Positions 4,521-42,655 of a DNA stretch of 47,099 nt are shown here, piece after piece (the stretch's first letter is position 1; the number at the start of each line of letters is the position of its first letter). The DNA is taken from assembly GCA_021812945.1 (NCBI GenBank), contig JAKAMI010000004.1, positions 1-47,099 of the forward strand, in the 5' to 3' direction. The notes under the pieces are model-generated. The model had not been told where the DNA came from and ran no database searches. It saw only the letters and a list, made by a program, of their open reading frames with translations. Source of the DNA: a bacterium. Its GTDB lineage: Bacteria; Patescibacteriota; UBA1384; XYA2-FULL-43-10; JAKAMI01. Position numbers and translations under genes: made by a program.

Positions 4521-6302
4521 ATGAACGATGAAGTTGAGGAGATCAAGCGCAAGATCGACATCGTGGAGTTTATCGGCTCCTATGTCACCTTGAAAAAAGC
4601 CGGAACCAATTACAAAGGTCTCTGTCCTTTTCACAACGAAAAAACACCGTCGATGATGGTCTCGCCGGAGAAGCAGATTTTCAAGTGCTTTGGTTGCTCG
4701 GAGGGTGGCGACGTATTTTCTTTCTTAATGAAAATAGAGGCGCTGGGTTTTGGCGATGCTCTAAAAACCCTGGCGGTCAAAGCCGGCGTAACCCTGAAAC
4801 CCAGGTATTTCGAAAAGCTTACTTCGGGGGAGCAGCCGGGGCAAAAAAGCCGACTTTTAGAGTTAAATGAACTGGCGGGCAGAGTTTATCACAAAGTCTT
4901 GGTTGATCACCCCAAAGCGGTTAAAGCCCGTGAGTACCTAGATGGGAGAGGTATCACTCAAAAAACTATCGAGGAGTTCAACTTTGGCTATGCGCCAGAC
5001 TCCTGGGACTTTCTGATCCGTTTCTGCGAGAAGCACGGCTACACCGAAAAGGAGCTCATACTCTCGGGTTTGGCCGTTCGCAAGAATCAGATCGAGAATA
5101 GCTCAAACAACCGCCAAAGTTACGATCGTTTCCGCGGTCGGATAATGTTCCCGATTTGCAACATCCTCGGCTCCACTGTCGCTTTTACCGGACGAGACTT
5201 GGTGGACAGGGAAAACTCTCCCAAATATTTGAATTCTTCGGAGTCGCCGATCTACCACAAAAGTCTGATTATCTACGGTTTGGACAAGGCCAAGATCGAG
5301 ATCAAAAAGACCGACCGAGTTATTATTGTCGAAGGACAGATGGATGTAGTCGCTTGCCACCAAGCGGGTTTTAGAAATGTCGTTGCCACTTCTGGCACCT
5401 CGTTGACCAAAGAGATGTTGGAAACTCTGAGTCGATACACCTTCAACATTTACTTCTGCTTCGATAGCGATAATGCCGGCCAGCTGGCTCTAAAGCGGGC
5501 CATTGGTCTGGCAGGGGAACTGGATCTCGGGACTAAGGTTGTCACTCTTCCTAAAGAATTCAAGGATCCGGACGAAGCCATTCAAAAAGATCCGAAAAAC
5601 TGGCCGGAGGCGGTGGAGAGAGCCAAGCCCGGGCTTGAGCATCTCGTAGACATTTACACCTCCAACCTGAACGATATTAACGATAAGCGAGCGGCGCAGA
5701 AAGAGTTGCTGCCGCTGATAAAAATTCTAAAGAGTGAGACGGAAAAGGAGTACTATATTAAGTATTTAGCCAAGAAGTTACTGGTCACCGAACAAACGTT
5801 AATAGAGGAGATGAGGCGACTTAAAGTCCAAGAGTCCAAAAGTCCGGAAGTCCAAAAGGAAGAAGAAACCGGAAGTGAATTATCGGATCAGGAAAAGCTG
5901 TTGGCGGTGTTGTTGGAGAAGCCGGCAGTACTGAAAGATCAACTTGGAAAAGCTGTTCAGTTACTGCGGCCGATGGGGGAGTTTGAGCGATTGATCATCA
6001 AAATAAAGCAGCTTGATCCGGTCGATGAAAAAACTGTTAGCGATATTTTAAAACAAACGGTCAAGAAAGACCGCCTCAAAGAGATTTGGCTGGGGTTAAT
6101 GTCGGAGTTGGACGATCCCGAGGCAGGAATTAACGACCTAGCCGAGGATCTACTAAAAGGACTAAAAAAGGCGAGTCTGGAGGACAGAAAAAACATCATT
6201 TTGAAACAAATCTCCGAAGCCGACTCAAAGGGCGACAAGAAGCTTTGCCTCAAATTGCTAAAGGAGCTCAATTCTGTTATAATCAACGGTAGTAAGGAGT
6301 AG
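4521..6302 (+). CDS. dnaG: DNA primase
   Basis: CHC2 zinc finger CPFHNEKTPS...CFGC, DRFRGRIMFPI, KYLNS, TOPRIM EGQMDV and FDSDNAG. Confidence 0.97.
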   Translation: MNDEVEEIKRKIDIVEFIGSYVTLKKAGTNYKGLCPFHNEKTPSMMVSPEKQIFKCFGCSEGGDVFSFLMKIEALGFGDALKTLAVKAGVTLKPRYFEKLTSGEQPGQKSRLLELNELAGRVYHKVLVDHPKAVKAREYLDGRGITQKTIEEFNFGYAPDSWDFLIRFCEKHGYTEKELILSGLAVRKNQIENSSNNRQSYDRFRGRIMFPICNILGSTVAFTGRDLVDRENSPKYLNSSESPIYHKSLIIYGLDKAKIEIKKTDRVIIVEGQMDVVACHQAGFRNVVATSGTSLTKEMLETLSRYTFNIYFCFDSDNAGQLALKRAIGLAGELDLGTKVVTLPKEFKDPDEAIQKDPKNWPEAVERAKPGLEHLVDIYTSNLNDINDKRAAQKELLPLIKILKSETEKEYYIKYLAKKLLVTEQTLIEEMRRLKVQESKSPEVQKEEETGSELSDQEKLLAVLLEKPAVLKDQLGKAVQLLRPMGEFERLIIKIKQLDPVDEKTVSDILKQTVKKDRLKEIWLGLMSELDDPEAGINDLAEDLLKGLKKASLEDRKNIILKQISEADSKGDKKLCLKLLKELNSVIINGSKE

Positions 6303-7696: not shown

Positions 7697-8074
7697 TCAC
7701 GAAGCCAGCTTGAGATGCTTTTCGATAGTTTTGATTTTGGCTTCCAAGCGGTCTTGCCGGACGACACCGAAATATCTTTCTTGATCTAATTTTTGTAAGA
7801 TGCCGGTTTGTTTTTCCAGAATATCATGCACCCAAACGTTGTCTTTTCCGAGTTTATTCAAGCGTTTTTCTATTTCTTCAAACCGACCATCAACCCGAGT
7901 GAACTCGCCCGATATCTCTTTTCGAAACCCCATAAACTCGTCCGACACCTCTTTTCGAAAATCCGTGAACTCGCCGGATACTTCTTTTCGGAATCTAATA
8001 AATTCGTCGGCAACCATTTGCCGAAAATCGTTAATTATTTCAACAATTTCTTCATTTTCAATTTTTTTCTTCAT
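7697..8074 (-). CDS. Coiled-coil protein with 11-aa repeats
   Basis: EFxxFRKEVSG repeats encoded by 33-nt tandem units at about 7901-8010. Confidence 0.75.
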   Translation of the reverse strand: MKKKIENEEIVEIINDFRQMVADEFIRFRKEVSGEFTDFRKEVSDEFMGFRKEISGEFTRVDGRFEEIEKRLNKLGKDNVWVHDILEKQTGILQKLDQERYFGVVRQDRLEAKIKTIEKHLKLAS

Positions 8075-34191: not shown

Positions 34192-34323
34192 AAACTCTAA
34201 ACCCCAAACTCTAAACTCTAAAGAAATTCAAAAGTTAAAAATTACAAATCCAAAAATTTTTTAAGTTTTTTTGATTTTATTATTTTGAGTTTTTTTAGGA
34301 TTTAGAATTTAGAGTTTAGGATT
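34192..34323. repeat. Inverted arrays of AT-rich ~7-mers (AACTCTA / TAGAGTT) with no gene between them
   Basis: Left AAACTCTAAACCCCAAACTCTAAACTCTAAA; right TTTAGGATTTAGAATTTAGAGTTTAGG. Confidence 0.65.
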
Positions 34324-34338
34324 TCCCGAAGGGATAAT

Positions 34339-35191: not shown

Positions 35192-35806
35192 TTGTATGGT
35201 ACGCTGGTCATCGTTTTTGCTGCGCTTTTGTCTGGTTATTTTTATTTGCCAAGTATTTTGGGCGACACGGTTTATCCTTTGCAGTACACCGATTCTATTA
35301 TCAAATGGTCGGCGGCTCACAAGGTCTCGCCAGACTTGACCGCCGGCATCATTTACCAGGAAAGTCATTTTAACCCCCAAGCCGTATCGGGGCCGGGGGC
35401 ACGGGGCTTGATGCAGATTATGCCCACAACCGGAGCCGGTATCAACAAAGCTTTCAACGTTCCGGGTTACAACGCGGATAAGCTCTACGATCCCGACATC
35501 AGTATAATGTTCGGTACTTGGTATATCAGCACCTTGATCCAGCGATATGACGGCAATACCGCGGCCGCCTTGACGGCTTACAATGCCGGCAGCGGGGCGG
35601 TTGACCACTGGTTTTCACTCGGGTTGTTTAGCGGCGGCAACAGCTACTCCAAGAGAGTTTTGGAGTATCAAACCATTTACCGCAATTACTACGGCCGCGA
35701 ACTTTTCGGAGTCAATTTCAAAGAACAAGCCATCGAAAAACCAAAACCGAGCTTTCTCTGGAGCCGGATGATCCAGGACTTGGTGGGACTGAGGTACGGG
35801 ACGTAG
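35192..35806 (+). CDS. Lytic transglycosylase (SLT domain)
   Basis: IIYQESHF, GARGLMQIMPTT, AYNAGSG; N-terminal TM; start uncertain. Confidence 0.9.
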   Translation: MYGTLVIVFAALLSGYFYLPSILGDTVYPLQYTDSIIKWSAAHKVSPDLTAGIIYQESHFNPQAVSGPGARGLMQIMPTTGAGINKAFNVPGYNADKLYDPDISIMFGTWYISTLIQRYDGNTAAALTAYNAGSGAVDHWFSLGLFSGGNSYSKRVLEYQTIYRNYYGRELFGVNFKEQAIEKPKPSFLWSRMIQDLVGLRYGT

Positions 35807-35838
35807 GAGTCCGAGAGTCCTGGAGTCCAGAAGTCTAA
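35807..35838 (+). repeat. Left tandem 8-mer array (GAGTCCNN x4)
   Basis: GAGTCCGA GAGTCCTG GAGTCCAG AAGTCTAA. Confidence 0.75.
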
Positions 35839-35849
35839 ATTAAGAACAA

Positions 35850-36203
35850 ATGTCAAACGGATTTAAAGATTTAATTGTCTGGCAAAAATCGATAGATTTA
35901 TGTATTAGAATATATAGATTAACCGCAAAGTTTCCTTCTTCAGAGCAATATTCGATTATATCTCAGTTAAGAAAAGCAGGATCATCTGTGCCCGCCAATA
36001 TCGCTGAGGGCTGTGCTAGATTTTCAAAAAAAGAATTTACTCACTTTCTCTGGATCGCATACGGATCTTTAGCTGAGGTTGATACTTTCTTGATAATTTC
36101 TCAAAAATTGGGATTTGTTAAAGAAGCTGACTTAGTCGATATTAATGAGCTAAAAGAAGAGATTCGGAAAATGATTAAAACATTGATTAAGATTCAAAAT
36201 TGA
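35850..36203 (+). CDS. Four-helix-bundle protein (23S rRNA IVS protein / bAvd-like family)
   Basis: FKDLIVWQKS, FP..E.Y..SQLRKAGSSVPANIAEG, IAYGSLAE. Confidence 0.92.
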   Translation: MSNGFKDLIVWQKSIDLCIRIYRLTAKFPSSEQYSIISQLRKAGSSVPANIAEGCARFSKKEFTHFLWIAYGSLAEVDTFLIISQKLGFVKEADLVDINELKEEIRKMIKTLIKIQN

Positions 36204-36212
36204 CCTTATTTT

Positions 36213-36248
36213 CTTTCGGACTTTCGGACTTTTAGACTCTAGGACTTT
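36213..36248 (-). repeat. Right tandem 8-mer array, inverted relative to the left
   Basis: TTCGGACT TTCGGACT TTTAGACT CTAGGACT. Confidence 0.75.
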
Positions 36249-36253
36249 ACGCT

Positions 36254-38041
36254 ATGACTTCACAAGAGTTAAGAAATAAATTTTTGAATTTTTTTGAACA
36301 GCGGGGGCACAAGATTATGCCTTCTTTTTCTCTAGTGCCCGACGAAACCGACCCGTCGGTGCTTTTTACCACCGCCGGCATGCATCCCTTCAAGCGATAT
36401 TATGCCAAACCTGATCTGGCTCCAGCCCCTGCTATTGTTACGATCCAAAAATGTATCCGAACCGGCGACATAGAGGAAGTCGGCGATGCCACTCACCTGA
36501 CATTTTTTGAAATGCTGGGGAATTTCTCTTTCGGCTACCCGAAAAAAGAAGGCTCCTATTTCAAAAAAGAGGCGATTGCGTATGCTTGGGAGTTTTTGAC
36601 CAAAGAACTGAACATCGAAATATCCAGGCTCTCAGCCACTTATTTCAAAGGGGAAGGTGGGATACCCGAGGACAAAGAATCATACGATATCATACGGAAT
36701 ATTACCAAATTACCGGAAGGCAAAATTGTTGGTACCGGTAAGTCCGAAACCTTTTGGTCGCTCGGGACCGAGAACTCCCCGGGCGGGCCAACCGTGGAGT
36801 TCTACATTGATAATATTGAAATCTGGAATCTAGTCTTTAATGAGTATATTTTACGAAATGAAAAATACGAACCGTCAGAGTACAAAGGCGTCGATACCGG
36901 CATGGGGTTCGAGCGTCTGCTGGCGGTTTTAAATCAGGCGGAAAATGTTTATCATACAGATATCTTTGAGGAATCTCACCGAAAATTGCACCAGCTTTTC
37001 AAAACTGAAAACCCGGTTGCGGAAAGGATTATCCTCGATCATTTGCGGGCGGCGGTTTTTATCATGGCTGACGGAGTCAGGCCTTCAAACAAGGGAGCCG
37101 GTTATGTCTTACGCCGCTTGATCCGTCGAGCTATCGTCAAGGCCAAAACCTTGGGGATTGAGGAGAATTTTTGTGCACGAGTGGCTACAACAATAGGTCA
37201 TTCTGAAGCCGATCCGAATCGGCTGCAGAATCCCACGAATGTTGGGATCCTTCGTTACTCTCAGGATGACGTGTTTAATGAGTTTGAAAAAGAAGAAACC
37301 AAGTTTCGAAAAACTTTGGCCCAGGGCCTTCGAATAATCAAGTCTCAAAAAGAATTTAGTGGTAAAGTGTTATTCGATCTGTACCAGACATACGGCATAC
37401 CGGTAGAAATTACTATTGAGGAAGCCGAACGACTTGGTAATGATATTAGCAATGAGACAATGAAACAGTTTAACAATGAGCTTTTGGCTCATCAAGAGCT
37501 TTCGCGGACGGCTTCGGCGGGGATGTTCAAGGGAGGGCTGGCCGATGCCGGCGAGGAAACGACTCGGCTTCATACCGCGGCACATCTGATGTTGGCAGCC
37601 TTGCGTCAGGTTTTAGGAGAGGAAGTGACTCAAAAAGGTTCGAACATTACTGCTGAGAGATTAAGATTTGATTTCAATTATCCGGAAAAGCTGACTTCGG
37701 AGCAGATCAAATCGGTGGAAGATATTGTAAACGAAAAAATTAAGGAGGATCTGCCCGTCACGATGGAGGAGATGGGCATTGACGACGCCAAAAAGTCCGG
37801 CGCCATGGGGGTATTCGATGACAGGTACGGGGACAAGGTGAAGGTTTACACAATCGGTAGGACCCATTCGACTCTTCTTCGCCAAGCCCAGGATCGCTCA
37901 GGGCCAATCGAGAAGCCGTTCTCGATTGAGATTTGCGGCGGCCCGCATGTCAAAAGAACCGGCGAACTCGGCCGCTTCAAAATCATCAAAGAAGAGTCCT
38001 CCTCCGCCGGTGTCCGGAGGATCAAAGCAATATTGGAATAG
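36254..38041 (+). CDS. alaS: Alanine--tRNA ligase (short form without C-Ala domain)
   Basis: LFTTAGM, HLTFFEMLGNFSFG, DTGMGFER, GYVLRRLIRRA, editing motifs HTAAH and CGGPH; ends GVRRIKAILE. Confidence 0.97.
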   Translation: MTSQELRNKFLNFFEQRGHKIMPSFSLVPDETDPSVLFTTAGMHPFKRYYAKPDLAPAPAIVTIQKCIRTGDIEEVGDATHLTFFEMLGNFSFGYPKKEGSYFKKEAIAYAWEFLTKELNIEISRLSATYFKGEGGIPEDKESYDIIRNITKLPEGKIVGTGKSETFWSLGTENSPGGPTVEFYIDNIEIWNLVFNEYILRNEKYEPSEYKGVDTGMGFERLLAVLNQAENVYHTDIFEESHRKLHQLFKTENPVAERIILDHLRAAVFIMADGVRPSNKGAGYVLRRLIRRAIVKAKTLGIEENFCARVATTIGHSEADPNRLQNPTNVGILRYSQDDVFNEFEKEETKFRKTLAQGLRIIKSQKEFSGKVLFDLYQTYGIPVEITIEEAERLGNDISNETMKQFNNELLAHQELSRTASAGMFKGGLADAGEETTRLHTAAHLMLAALRQVLGEEVTQKGSNITAERLRFDFNYPEKLTSEQIKSVEDIVNEKIKEDLPVTMEEMGIDDAKKSGAMGVFDDRYGDKVKVYTIGRTHSTLLRQAQDRSGPIEKPFSIEICGGPHVKRTGELGRFKIIKEESSSAGVRRIKAILE

Positions 38042-38353: not shown

Positions 38354-38506
38354 CCACATAGTTCTAAAACGCGTTGAGGCTCGCCTAAACAGTCCATGCG
38401 GGACTGATTCGGACGAGCCTCTTCGGTATTATGCGATCGGGGCACGCGGTGGTTTTCTCTCCTTCATGTCGACCTTGCGCGCCATTGGTCACGCCTCCCT
38501 AGCAGA

Positions 38507-38938
38507 CTAGCAGAACGCCTCGCGGAACGCCTCGATGATCTGGCGGTCTGTCTCGTCGAAGCTCGGCATTGCACTCTGGTAGCCGTCGGGGTCCAGAATC
38601 GACTCACGAACCCACTCGGCCAACGCTAACATGTGCTTGGTCGTCGACAGCGGGTCCTCGCCCGGATCGGCCATGGCCTCGCGGAGGTGCTGCGCGAGAT
38701 AGACCAGCTCGACAGGATCGTGGAGGAGTCTCTCGCGATACCCCTTGGCCTTCTCGGCGTAGACCTCCGCCAACTCGAGGCAAGAGGCGTCTCCGAGGCA
38801 GAAGATCTCATCTCGGACAAACCCCAGAACTTCGTTCGGGCCCATTGCCCTGACCTTCCCGAGACAGTCGTCCAGCCAGCCGAGCTGAAGAGAACTCAGA
38901 CCGACCTGCTGAAGTGTGACAACATCGGTAACCATCAT
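38507..38938 (-). CDS. Hypothetical helical protein (GC-rich gene)
   Basis: GGGAGG RBS before ATG 38938; TTGACA-17-TATTTT promoter upstream. Confidence 0.6.
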   Translation of the reverse strand: MMVTDVVTLQQVGLSSLQLGWLDDCLGKVRAMGPNEVLGFVRDEIFCLGDASCLELAEVYAEKAKGYRERLLHDPVELVYLAQHLREAMADPGEDPLSTTKHMLALAEWVRESILDPDGYQSAMPSFDETDRQIIEAFREAFC

Positions 38939-39018
38939 GGCGCCTCCCTTGATCGGATGTCGGCAATGGCTTAAAAATAGCAGAATTATTGAGTTTGTCA
39001 AACAGAATTTTGTTTTTA

Positions 39019-40469: not shown

Positions 40470-40597
40470 ATAGTGATAGACGTGGCTAGACATAGTGAGA
40501 AATAGTTAGACATGGTAAGACAAAGCAAGACATTGACAAACAATTTCTCTCTATCGTCTCACTATTTCTCTCTACTTCTAACGGCATTCGAAAACGC

Positions 40598-42655
40598 ATG
40601 GAAGATAAGTTGATATATCTCGAATCGGATGAGGAAATCACCTCGGTTATCGACAAGATCAGTAAAGCTACCAGTGTCGATGTCGCCCTGGTGATACCTC
40701 GAGGGGGAAACCTTGCGCAGAGCATCGTTAATTTGAAATTGCTGAAAAAGCGTGCTTCTGATTTGGGTAAAGATGTCTCTTTGGTTACCGCCGACAAGAT
40801 CAGCCGTAACCTGGCTTCGCAGGTGGGGATCTCGGTCTATTCACGAGTGGATGAAGTCGGCCGCAGATCCGTGCCGCCGGCACCGCTTATGGCTGAAAGA
40901 CCAGTCGCTATAGCCGAGGAGGTTATTAAATCCGACGTTCCCGCGCCGGCACCGGCCAAACCGGCCGAGGAGTTGCCGGAGATGCCCGGGATCAAGATAC
41001 ATCGGTACTATGATGAACGAAGTCAATCACCGGTGATCAGTAATCAGTTATCAGGGGAAAGTAATACAAAGTCAGAACCGAATTTGAAAACTGACAACCG
41101 AAAACTGACAACCGAAAACAAATCTTTAGAGCCATCGAAGGACGAGGTAGTTGAGGAAAGTGTTCAAAAAGACGTTGAGAAACCAATTCCTGCCGAGGTC
41201 ATCGAGCTTCCAGAGCATCCGGTAATCGTGGAGTCCGAAAATCCCGGAGTTCGAAAGTCCGAAGAAAATCCAGAAATAAGGGAAGAAAAACTCCCGGAAG
41301 AAAGCGGTTTCAAACGCAAGAAAATCAGTGTCAGAGACGCTATTAAAAATAGTCGGGAGTCACAAGATAGTCCAGAGTCCCAAGCCATGCCTGCCGGCAG
41401 GCAGGTCCAAAGTCACGAGGAAGAATATTCAAAATCAAGAATTAATAATTCTGACGAATCGAAACCCAAACTTCCGGGTCGGCGATTCAAGCCGATGAAA
41501 AAACGCCGGGCGTTGTTTGTGCTGATCGCTCTAGCCCTTGCTGTCATCTTAGCTTTCGGTTATCTGATACTGCCGCAAGCCAAGGCCACCGTCACCTTCA
41601 AGGCGGAAAATTTCGATCAGAGTTCCGAGGCCGCCATCAGTACCGCCCAAAAGGGAACAGACGCGGATAACGTCATTATTACCGCTACTCAGAACAGCGT
41701 AGACAAAGAGATTTCAGACAAATTTTCTGCTACCGGACAAAGAAATATTGGTGCCAAAGCAACCGGTAAAGTCACTCTTTTTAATGCCGGTTCATCTGCC
41801 CCGCAGAAAATAAATTCCGGACAGGTTCTAAGCTACGACAGTAAAAATTTTACTATCAACGCCGCTGTAACCATTCCGGGAGCCTCGGTTTCGGGAGGCA
41901 ACATTGTCCCTGGGCAAGTCTCGGCCGACGTCACCGCTACCGACTCGGGCGAAGTCTATAATTTGGCTCTGGTTAAATCTCCCAATAAATTCGTGCTGAA
42001 CAGTTTTCCCTCGACCCAGACTTGGGCCGAATCGGCCGCGGCCTTTGCCGGCGGCTCGACCCAAAATGTCAAAGTAATCCAACAGAGTGACATCAATTCG
42101 GCTCAAGAAGCTATTAAAACCAAGCTTTCGGCCCAGGCCAAAGAGGAGGTTTTGAAGAAAGTTCCCACAACCGAAAAATACCTTGACGGGACCATTTCCG
42201 AAAACATTAGCGCTCTTTCATCTTCGGCTCTGGCAGGGGCGCAAGCCGACGACTTTACTTTTTCCGGGAAAATCAGCACCGGCATTTTATCCTTTAACGA
42301 GAATACTCTCAGGGATTTGTTAATATCAAAATATGAAGCCAAACTGGACCGAAACCGCGTCTTGGTGCAAAAGGATAAGATAGTGCTGGACTATCTTATC
42401 AAATCGTTGGACATGGCTTCGGGCAAGGCCGTTTACACTATCAAAATGTCCGGAAAAATCAGCAGTCGGGTTGACACCGAGAGACTGAAGGAACAGCTCA
42501 GCGGCAAGCCGCTGGATGAAGCGAAGCGGGTATTGTCTGCCATCGACTTAGTCAAATCGGTAGACCTTCGGATGTCTCCCAATCTTTCCGTTTACAAAAC
42601 TATGCCGCTGTTTAAGAACAGTATAAAAATTGAAACATTATACGAAACGGAATAA
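40598..42655 (+). CDS. Bitopic membrane protein with globular N-terminal domain, long disordered linker and baseplate-J-like extracellular domain
   Basis: IYLESDEEITSVIDKI..VIP..NLKLLKK; TM at about aa 305-325; ATGKVTLFN, VTIPGA, ATDSGEVYN, FAGG. Confidence 0.75.
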   Translation: MEDKLIYLESDEEITSVIDKISKATSVDVALVIPRGGNLAQSIVNLKLLKKRASDLGKDVSLVTADKISRNLASQVGISVYSRVDEVGRRSVPPAPLMAERPVAIAEEVIKSDVPAPAPAKPAEELPEMPGIKIHRYYDERSQSPVISNQLSGESNTKSEPNLKTDNRKLTTENKSLEPSKDEVVEESVQKDVEKPIPAEVIELPEHPVIVESENPGVRKSEENPEIREEKLPEESGFKRKKISVRDAIKNSRESQDSPESQAMPAGRQVQSHEEEYSKSRINNSDESKPKLPGRRFKPMKKRRALFVLIALALAVILAFGYLILPQAKATVTFKAENFDQSSEAAISTAQKGTDADNVIITATQNSVDKEISDKFSATGQRNIGAKATGKVTLFNAGSSAPQKINSGQVLSYDSKNFTINAAVTIPGASVSGGNIVPGQVSADVTATDSGEVYNLALVKSPNKFVLNSFPSTQTWAESAAAFAGGSTQNVKVIQQSDINSAQEAIKTKLSAQAKEEVLKKVPTTEKYLDGTISENISALSSSALAGAQADDFTFSGKISTGILSFNENTLRDLLISKYEAKLDRNRVLVQKDKIVLDYLIKSLDMASGKAVYTIKMSGKISSRVDTERLKEQLSGKPLDEAKRVLSAIDLVKSVDLRMSPNLSVYKTMPLFKNSIKIETLYETE

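Follow-up and report, generated by a model that had tools for sequence, protein, structure and literature searches.

A four-helix-bundle gene between inverted tandem arrays

The 47,099-nt window (the whole stretch of DNA analyzed here) carries on its plus strand a gene for an SLT-domain lytic transglycosylase (35192..35806; PF01464, E = 3.1e-31) and, downstream, alaS (36254..38041; 595 aa; PF01411, E = 1.3e-103, and also PF07973). These two host genes are separated by a cassette of 442 nt. Its left arm (35807..35838, plus strand) abuts the SLT stop codon, TAG at 35804-35806, and consists of four tandem 8-mers with an AGTCY core, GAGTCCGA GAGTCCTG GAGTCCAG AAGTCTAA; the unit type is GAGTCCNN and the fourth unit is degenerate. 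The right arm (36213..36248, plus strand) is the inverse of the left, with ~4.5 tandem 8-mers of consensus CTTTCGGA that read TTCGGACT TTCGGACT TTTAGACT CTAGGACT; its final GGACTT runs up to 36247, with the alaS ATG following at 36254. An earlier reading made from the DNA letters (the sequence-only reading) had described four units directly after the SLT stop and an inverted array just before the alaS start codon, and both arrays are present as described, the second having ~4.5 units and ending 5-6 nt upstream of the ATG.

Both arrays have a period of 8 according to Tandem Repeats Finder, with 2.8 copies detected at 35807-35828 and 4.5 copies at 36213-36248. In a repeat search, the 28-nt arms 35808-35835 and 36219-36246 are complementary at 75% of positions, rising to 85% in a 20-nt sub-arm. 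The two-unit pattern AGTCCNNNAGTCC occurs six times in the window against an expectation of 0.06, a count that was reached in none of 100 shuffles. The last right-arm unit also contains the tetranucleotide AGGA (36241..36244, plus strand), 9 nt 5' of the alaS ATG as read from the sequence and paired in the minimum free energy (MFE) fold described below; this could be a Shine-Dalgarno site, which the stem would sequester.

Between the arms lies a gene of 117 codons (35850..36203, plus strand) whose product belongs to the four-helix-bundle S23p, or 23S rRNA intervening sequence (IVS), protein family, with a full-length match to PF05635 (E = 9.6e-38) and a match to TIGR02436 (E = 1.4e-36). The GC content is 0.34 at 35800-36199 compared with 0.52 directly upstream and ~0.5 in the neighboring genes, so that the proposal of an enclosed, AT-rich four-helix-bundle gene holds for both family and composition. 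The closest solved relative of the protein is Xcc0516 (PDB 2gsc; E = 9.6e-21), deposited with five chains, and the motif Q..R...S...NIAEG, whose positions are invariant columns in our alignment A1, is present. No recognizable enzymatic domain was found: PF05635 is the sole family match, PADLOC returned nothing for the protein, and it has neither a transposase, integrase or nuclease domain nor a match to an HUH/Y1 nuclease. Homologues more than 55% identical to it were absent from both the genome and the metagenome contig collections.

Rfam has no match at 35600-36400, promoter consensus sites at the locus do not exceed those in shuffles, and the terminator consensus sites that were found fall inside alaS, are no more frequent than in shuffles, and do not qualify as intrinsic terminators. 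The sequence-only reading had noted that the window lacks a transposase and a reverse transcriptase; this agrees with a scan of 40 window ORFs, none of which matches a transposase family at E <= 1e-5, and with a search for PF00078, which has matches in this genome only on contigs C8 and C26 and none on the cassette contig. Reading the junctions by eye, we saw no target-site duplication.

The cassette is an insertion relative to sampled relatives

The 40 relatives considered all belong to other families of the same order, with SLT identity of at most 53%, and 29 of their SLT loci were examined. In 28 of these 29 loci (L038 is the exception) alaS adjoins the SLT gene, and a four-helix-bundle gene was detected at none of the 29 (tblastn, E <= 1e-3). 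Thirteen of the loci have an SLT-alaS gap of at most 17 nt or an overlap. Because the two genes are adjacent, free of the four-helix-bundle gene and often no more than 17 nt apart in relatives, the tight junction is likely the older state, and the cassette is an insertion relative to the sampled relatives. SLT-alaS pairs without the cassette, which the sequence-only reading had proposed looking for, are thus readily found, and the vertical conservation that it had named as counting against a mobile cassette is not seen among the 29 loci.

The junction has also received other material. Gene-less tandem-array hairpins, with units different from those of the cassette, are located between SLT and alaS in five relatives (L014, L015, L018, L019 and L020), with folding z-scores of -3.0 to -5.8, and none of 60 shuffles reached their stability. 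The hairpin in L030 is of another, GC-rich kind, and L023, L024 and L034 have one-armed arrays, read by eye. The ungapped self-complement scores of the relatives' AT-rich spacers are barely above, or not separable from, those of shuffles. Repeat hairpins, with or without a gene, are best described as additions to the SLT-alaS junction. We also note that the spacer of L023 contains three CACAGAT motifs, whose heptamer core is also that of the GACAGAT repeats in the Coxiella IVS and at locus L057, and that the tblastn alignments of alaS from L021, L022 and L037 break by ~100-450 nt near query residues 198-238, which suggests, from the alignments, a putative insertion inside alaS itself.

Contigs assembled from four DNA runs of one study carry the cassette with three substitutions. 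None of these contigs, which cannot show rare forms, contains a cassette-less joint.

Predicted pairing of the arms and constraint on their sequence

When the segment 35800-36256 is folded as RNA, the MFE is -115 kcal/mol (z = -2.77), and positions 3-37 pair with ~418-452 around the ORF. The duplex between the arms has a predicted energy of -50.8 kcal/mol compared with -29.0 +- 4.6 for shuffles (z = -4.8), and -40.6 for the antisense strand. The idea that the arrays pair around the gene in the mRNA is therefore upheld at the level of prediction, by both the MFE fold and the duplex z-score. Among 41 cassettes, the arm duplex has a z-score below -3 in 23, and the sense strand is the more stable one in only 24, so there is no general bias of sense over antisense stability.

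Within the array units, four or five positions are nearly invariant and two or three are freely variable. The best arm-to-arm alignments comprise 822 matches, with mismatches that include 38 top-strand G-U, 30 bottom-strand G-U and 107 transversions; these are near random proportions, and there is no G-U wobble bias between arms across the cassettes. Spacer covariation between arms was likewise not detected (0.690 observed versus 0.677 in the null, with none of 29 cassettes at p <= 0.05), in a comparison whose power is low at n = 29. Because both signals are absent, the arms are described as sharing a repeated core in opposite orientation rather than as forming a fully compensated helix. Stem formation is nonetheless feasible, with small internal loops between the core helices. 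Pairing alone does not explain tandem units with a conserved core, a pattern that resembles repeated binding sites.

Most paralogues in the genome are enclosed by arrays of their own

The genome (912 kb in 42 contigs) contains 12 PF05635 matches, and a profile built here adds a thirteenth, weak four-helix-bundle match beside the reverse transcriptase on C26. Most of the paralogues not linked to a reverse transcriptase are bracketed by inverted short-period tandem arrays whose unit is specific to each, including ACAGCTNG, AGACATAGTA, TAAAGYTG, AAGTCAAAAG, TTAGAAYT, ATCAAG-type and TAAAYYC units. The inverted-flank score exceeds that of all 20 shuffles in 9 of the 12 genome matches. Against a background of 884 ORFs in a rough gene set, and with a threshold inverted-flank score of at least 10, the design marks 9 of 10 scored four-helix-bundle genes and only 45 of 845 other ORFs. 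Five ORFs outside the four-helix-bundle family also have very strong inverted flanks (ungapped scores of 26-45), at C25:15873-16565, C30:37502-38071, C19:23521-23904, C39:33357-34028 and C31:21299-22588; these may be other mobile elements.

The two reverse transcriptases of the genome (C8:4166-5421 and C26:5001-6148) each adjoin a weak four-helix-bundle match, and the copy linked to the C8 enzyme has no arrays (inverted score 5). Both linked copies look like accessory (Avd-type) genes of diversity-generating retroelements (DGRs), which makes the two loci candidate DGRs. Searching the six-frame genome with an HMM revealed no decayed four-helix-bundle genes inside mid-sized gene-less array pairs.

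The same design surrounds most members of the protein family

We scored flanking sequences in three further collections. When 29 genomes of the order were sampled at one locus apiece, and flanks were counted as positive if more complementary than all 20 shuffles, 21 of 29 loci were positive, two of the failing loci having a mis-set start codon. Among named genomes from a range of phyla, including Planctomycetota, Chloroflexota, Bacteroidota, Acidobacteriota, several Proteobacteria, Nitrospirota and Firmicutes, the best 80 loci yielded 55 that beat all shuffles (in this set L076 duplicates L046), and metagenomes yielded 42 of 76 usable loci. Enrichment for inverted arrays around homologues is therefore strong in the genome, order, multi-phylum and metagenome sets alike, and the lack of enrichment that the sequence-only reading had said would speak against it is not what we see.

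Across 120 cassettes, a tandem array was found on both flanks in 48, on one flank in 59 and on neither in 13, so that 107 of 120 have an array on at least one side compared with 16 of 229 control windows in the same loci. A period of 7 dominates (66 of 84 upstream and 59 of 71 downstream arrays), which makes the 8-mer of the present cassette a minority form. The number of units per arm has a median of 4.3-4.4 and a mode of 4; the dominant period and the unit number were replicated in the metagenome set. Most of the loop is taken up by the ORF, whose start codon lies a median of 19.5 nt after the upstream array and whose stop codon precedes the downstream array by a median of 6 nt. The same gene-in-array-hairpin design thus surrounds most members of the protein family. 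One core, TCAGC, lies upstream in 15 of 19 cassettes, a polarity that may simply be inherited.

Gene-less arrays and the link between array core and protein

Short-period repeats are abundant in this genome, where our census recorded 838 merged arrays. Pairs of arrays within 1.5 kb of each other and with an inverted score of at least 10 number 77, compared with 17 for random pairs. Gene-less hairpins with loops of at most 130 nt were found at 42 loci, mostly between genes. The assignment of hairpins to families was partly read by eye, as automatic k-mer assignment lumped AT-rich families together. By this reading, which k-mers support in part, the hairpin units belong to the families of the cassettes. 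About 18 hairpins, 110-150 nt long, have outer TAAAYYC and inner AAATTCAAAA arrays like the cassette on C25, and smaller groups match the cassettes on C6, C39, C16, C27 and C22; for the ATCTCAAA hairpin group, no gene-bearing copy was found in the genome.

Two of these hairpins are in the window. A 133-nt palindromic one (34192..34324) made of TAAAYYC/TTTAGRR 7-mers, with inner repeats of the AAATTCAAAA type, occupies the gap between the NUDIX and ZIP genes; it is one of the ~18 gene-less copies of the family whose sole gene-bearing copy is on C25. The other (40488..40579) is formed by inverted 10-mers (AGACATAGTA) directly 3' of an ftsA-like gene and has the core of the four-helix-bundle cassette on C22. 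Non-cognate arrays in the same genome include (TAAACTC)4 and (TAAAGTTN)4 types.

The core of the present cassette is itself widely dispersed. Arrays of at least three AGTCY units occur 46 times in the genome and not once in any of 20 shuffles; 14 are intergenic and 32 lie inside approximate ORFs, several as inverted pairs. The only AGTCY pair that encloses a gene is 35808/36219, and the 44 further arrays are gene-less. One of them, a one-armed AGTCC array (5825..5852, plus strand), is inside the dnaG ORF, after the DnaB-binding domain. AGTCC-type arrays at 41230-41384 are read through in a 685-aa ORF (40598-42655) that has no Pfam match.

For the resident cassette cores, the numbers of further arrays in the genome are 2, 33, -1, 1, 49, 4, 1, 4 and 25, the value of -1 arising where the search pattern missed one or more arms of the C22 10-mer cassette. 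Cores taken from foreign cassettes have no arrays in this genome in 30 of 51 and 26 of 41 cases, and the few with counts of at least 5 include AAAGT and GAGTC, which match resident families. Resident cores therefore recur in the genome and foreign ones mostly do not, a contrast that base composition may partly inflate.

The array core also tracks the protein. Where the proteins of two cassettes are at least 60% identical, a repeated 5-mer is common to both in 61% of 252 pairs and in 8 of 8 pairs, versus 2-9% otherwise, and the Mantel correlation between core and protein (r = 0.225) was matched by none of 500 permutations. Across phyla, as assigned from record titles, and with cassette pairs that are not phylogenetically independent, 68 of 120 pairs at or above 60% identity have a repeated 5-mer in common, compared with 153 of 3440 less similar pairs (4-6%). 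One protein clade, for instance, has the TCAGC core in Planctomycetota, Chloroflexota, Proteobacteria, Nitrospirota and Ignavibacteria alike. These observations support, short of proof, that the array core follows the protein clade, and tracking of this kind across phyla argues against a bare gene that adopts whatever hairpin is locally available.

Comparison with known systems

The closest counterpart is the IVS in helix 45 of the Coxiella burnetii 23S rRNA gene, described in the portions of PMC4990558 used here as an element of 428-444 nt with a 28-bp terminal-inverted-repeat stem and two or three tandem GACAGAT heptamers just before the S23p ATG. RNase III cuts this IVS in vitro, and RACE-mapped ends are located at the first repeat (PMC4990558). 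The present cassette shares with it an S23p/PF05635 protein whose ORF sits in the loop of a terminal-inverted-repeat stem, a similar size (442 nt versus 428-444 nt), and tandem repeats before the start codon (GAGTCCNN x4 versus GACAGAT x2-3). It differs in its location between protein genes rather than in a 23S rRNA gene (at helix 25 or 45), in its 8-mer units and different core, and in that cutting by RNase III, demonstrated for Coxiella according to that source, would here be a prediction. An RNase III gene is encoded in the genome that carries the cassette. Leptospira is cited in the same portions of PMC4990558 as another case of an ORF-bearing rRNA IVS.

PF05635 genes have also been reported wedged within operons, as between cmr3 and cmr2 (PMC3936711, in part), and in insertions in the 16S and 23S rRNA genes of CPR bacteria (PMC11270868, in part). 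Those cases resemble ours in family and in a position between or inside other genes, and the conserved motif reported for them, GxxRxxxSxxxNxxE, is present here; unlike the description given above, the portions of PMC3936711 and PMC11270868 that concern PF05635 genes do not mention flanking arrays. Searching the main texts of the literature, we found no paper that links PF05635 to flanking tandem arrays beyond the heptamers of the Coxiella IVS.

The arrangement of the repeats invites a second comparison. In REP/RAYT systems (REPtrons), inverted copies of a short repeat flank a single gene, and further copies, some of them inside ORFs, are dispersed through the genome in gene-less form. The present gene is similarly flanked by inverted copies of a genome-dispersed repeat, two of the 46 AGTCY arrays being its flanks. 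However, it encodes a 117-aa helical bundle rather than an HUH/Y1 transposase, and the repeats are tandem 7-8-mers rather than a single palindrome. The locus is also unlike transposons of the IS or MITE type, as it has no transposase gene and no target duplication seen by eye. Finally, PF05635 is reported to resemble the DGR accessory protein Avd (PDB 4DWL, as cited in the relevant portion of PMC10053308). The likeness extends to a related four-helix-bundle fold, and the closest solved relatives form pentameric rings; unlike an Avd gene, the one in the cassette has no adjacent reverse transcriptase and no template or variable repeats.

A model for the cassette and its alternatives

On balance we consider it probable that the locus carries an IVS-type cassette, acquired by insertion, and that its arms pair with each other once the operon is transcribed, probably as a target for RNase III cutting. 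The sequence-only reading had likewise compared the cassette to an IVS in a protein-coding operon, a view now supported by the insertion relative to relatives, the family-wide enrichment of arrays, the predicted pairing and the likeness to Coxiella. According to this model, the cassette would have been inserted into a short SLT-alaS gap, with the PF05635 gene filling the hairpin loop. It would be co-transcribed with SLT and alaS, as no promoter or terminator signal stands out above chance. The arms would pair in the transcript as a beaded stem, its 5-6-bp core helices alternating with mismatched spacers, and RNase III may cut this stem as in the rRNA IVSs of Coxiella and Leptospira; by analogy with these, serving as an RNase III substrate in the SLT-alaS transcript is the most likely function of the arms. 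The cut would release a small mRNA and might in this way make the insertion tolerable to the host operon. The last right-arm unit would supply AGGA to alaS, and the stem would mask it. The processing or excision of the RNA, the mobility of the cassette and any role of its protein are inferred. Several findings speak against the model: the arms are complementary at only 75% of positions, neither a G-U bias nor spacer covariation connects them, the sense strand has no general advantage in stability, the contigs of the four DNA runs show no cassette-less form, no homologue exceeds 55% identity, and the protein lacks a recognizable enzymatic domain.

A further and speculative step is that the protein, as a ring, recognizes the core repeated in its cognate array family and also works in trans, on gene-less copies. 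Three features suggest action of the protein on its own repeats: the conserved core with free spacers, the modal four to five units per arm alongside solved relatives with five chains, and the occurrence of one gene-bearing and many gene-less copies per array family. In its specific form, in which PF05635 rings bind four to five tandem units of 7-8 nt in a sequence-specific manner, one for each protomer of a pentamer, and each clade spreads or maintains its own arrays and hairpins across a genome, we regard this proposal as tentative and rather doubtful. If true, it would amount to a REP/RAYT-like partnership driven by a non-enzymatic four-helix bundle, and would explain ORF-bearing rRNA IVSs together with many of the short tandem arrays between and inside bacterial genes.

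Several alternatives deserve consideration. The arrays might be ordinary host hairpins that act as terminators, insulators or determinants of mRNA stability, the gene being a passenger that lands by chance, or is tolerated solely, in their loops and has no functional link to them. That the 42 gene-less array hairpins of this genome are mainly intergenic, that gene-less hairpins occupy the SLT-alaS junction in five relatives, and that the C25 cassette looks like one copy of an 18-member hairpin family with an ORF at its apex are all consistent with such a view. We nevertheless judge it unlikely, as the core tracks the protein clade from phylum to phylum (68 of 120 pairs versus 4-6%), almost every non-DGR paralogue is enclosed compared with ~5% of other ORFs, and the same design is found inside rRNA genes, to judge from the relevant portions of PMC4990558 and PMC11270868. 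Moreover, the cassette locus has no terminator-like signal above chance, and the many AGTCY arrays inside ORFs would be ill-suited to a terminator. A unit that moves as DNA, in the manner of a transposon, is a little harder to credit and we consider it quite improbable. Here, the tandem units would be inverted subterminal binding sites such as those at the ends of Tn7, Mu and Ac, bound by the four-helix-bundle protein or by a host recombinase, and the gene-less hairpins would be MITE-like derivatives. The conserved core with free spacers, the lack of RNA-type covariation between arms, the many gene-less copies alongside one gene-bearing copy per family, and the variable presence at orthologous junctions among relatives would all fit. 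Against this stand the absence of a transposase, integrase or nuclease domain from protein and window, the lack of a target-site duplication when the junctions are read by eye, the fact that family copies share a core rather than long identical sequence, and population contigs that contain neither an empty site nor an excised form.

Two other explanations carry far less weight. The resemblance of PF05635 to Avd (noted in part of PMC10053308) and the two reverse transcriptases that adjoin weak four-helix-bundle matches on C8 and C26 could indicate that the gene is a stray DGR accessory gene amid unrelated low-complexity DNA. This is very unlikely: neither reverse transcriptase is on the cassette contig, the copy linked to the C8 enzyme is array-less (inverted score 5), and the cassette protein matches IVS-type models strongly and is flanked by arrays like at least 100 of its homologues. 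That inverted arrays arose here by chance from intergenic DNA of low complexity is scarcely credible. A genome with 838 merged short-period arrays, and AT-rich spacers whose ungapped self-complement scores barely exceed those of shuffles, might be thought to produce such features, but the AGTCCNNNAGTCC pattern occurs 6 times versus 0.06 expected, the arm duplex has a z-score of -4.8, 46 AGTCY arrays compare with none in 20 shuffles, and the design recurs around homologues in three independent collections. We therefore reject a chance origin on the strength of the array counts, the duplex z-score and the recurrence in three collections.

The function of the S23p family and the origin of ORF-bearing rRNA IVSs have been open questions since the 1990s; in the portions of PMC4990558 that address them, the Coxiella IVS is regarded as selfish and only hypotheses are listed for its function and origin. 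The present locus and its relatives show that inverted tandem arrays accompany the gene in rRNA and in ordinary operons alike. They also show array cores moving together with the protein clade, and gene-less arrays in a genome that bear the cores of its resident genes. With this, the vague idea of a "selfish element" becomes directly testable. This view may also explain a substantial fraction of the short tandem repeats found in the small genomes of CPR bacteria, among them arrays that are read through within essential genes.

Two features elsewhere in the window are recorded for completeness. A 33/66-nt tandem repeat of 2-2.7 copies with 76-80% matches (7899-8029) overlaps small ORFs without Pfam matches. 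Directly beyond alaS, the region 38400-39000, which contains a 164-aa minus-strand ORF without a Pfam match, has a GC content of 0.59-0.63 compared with ~0.45 around it.
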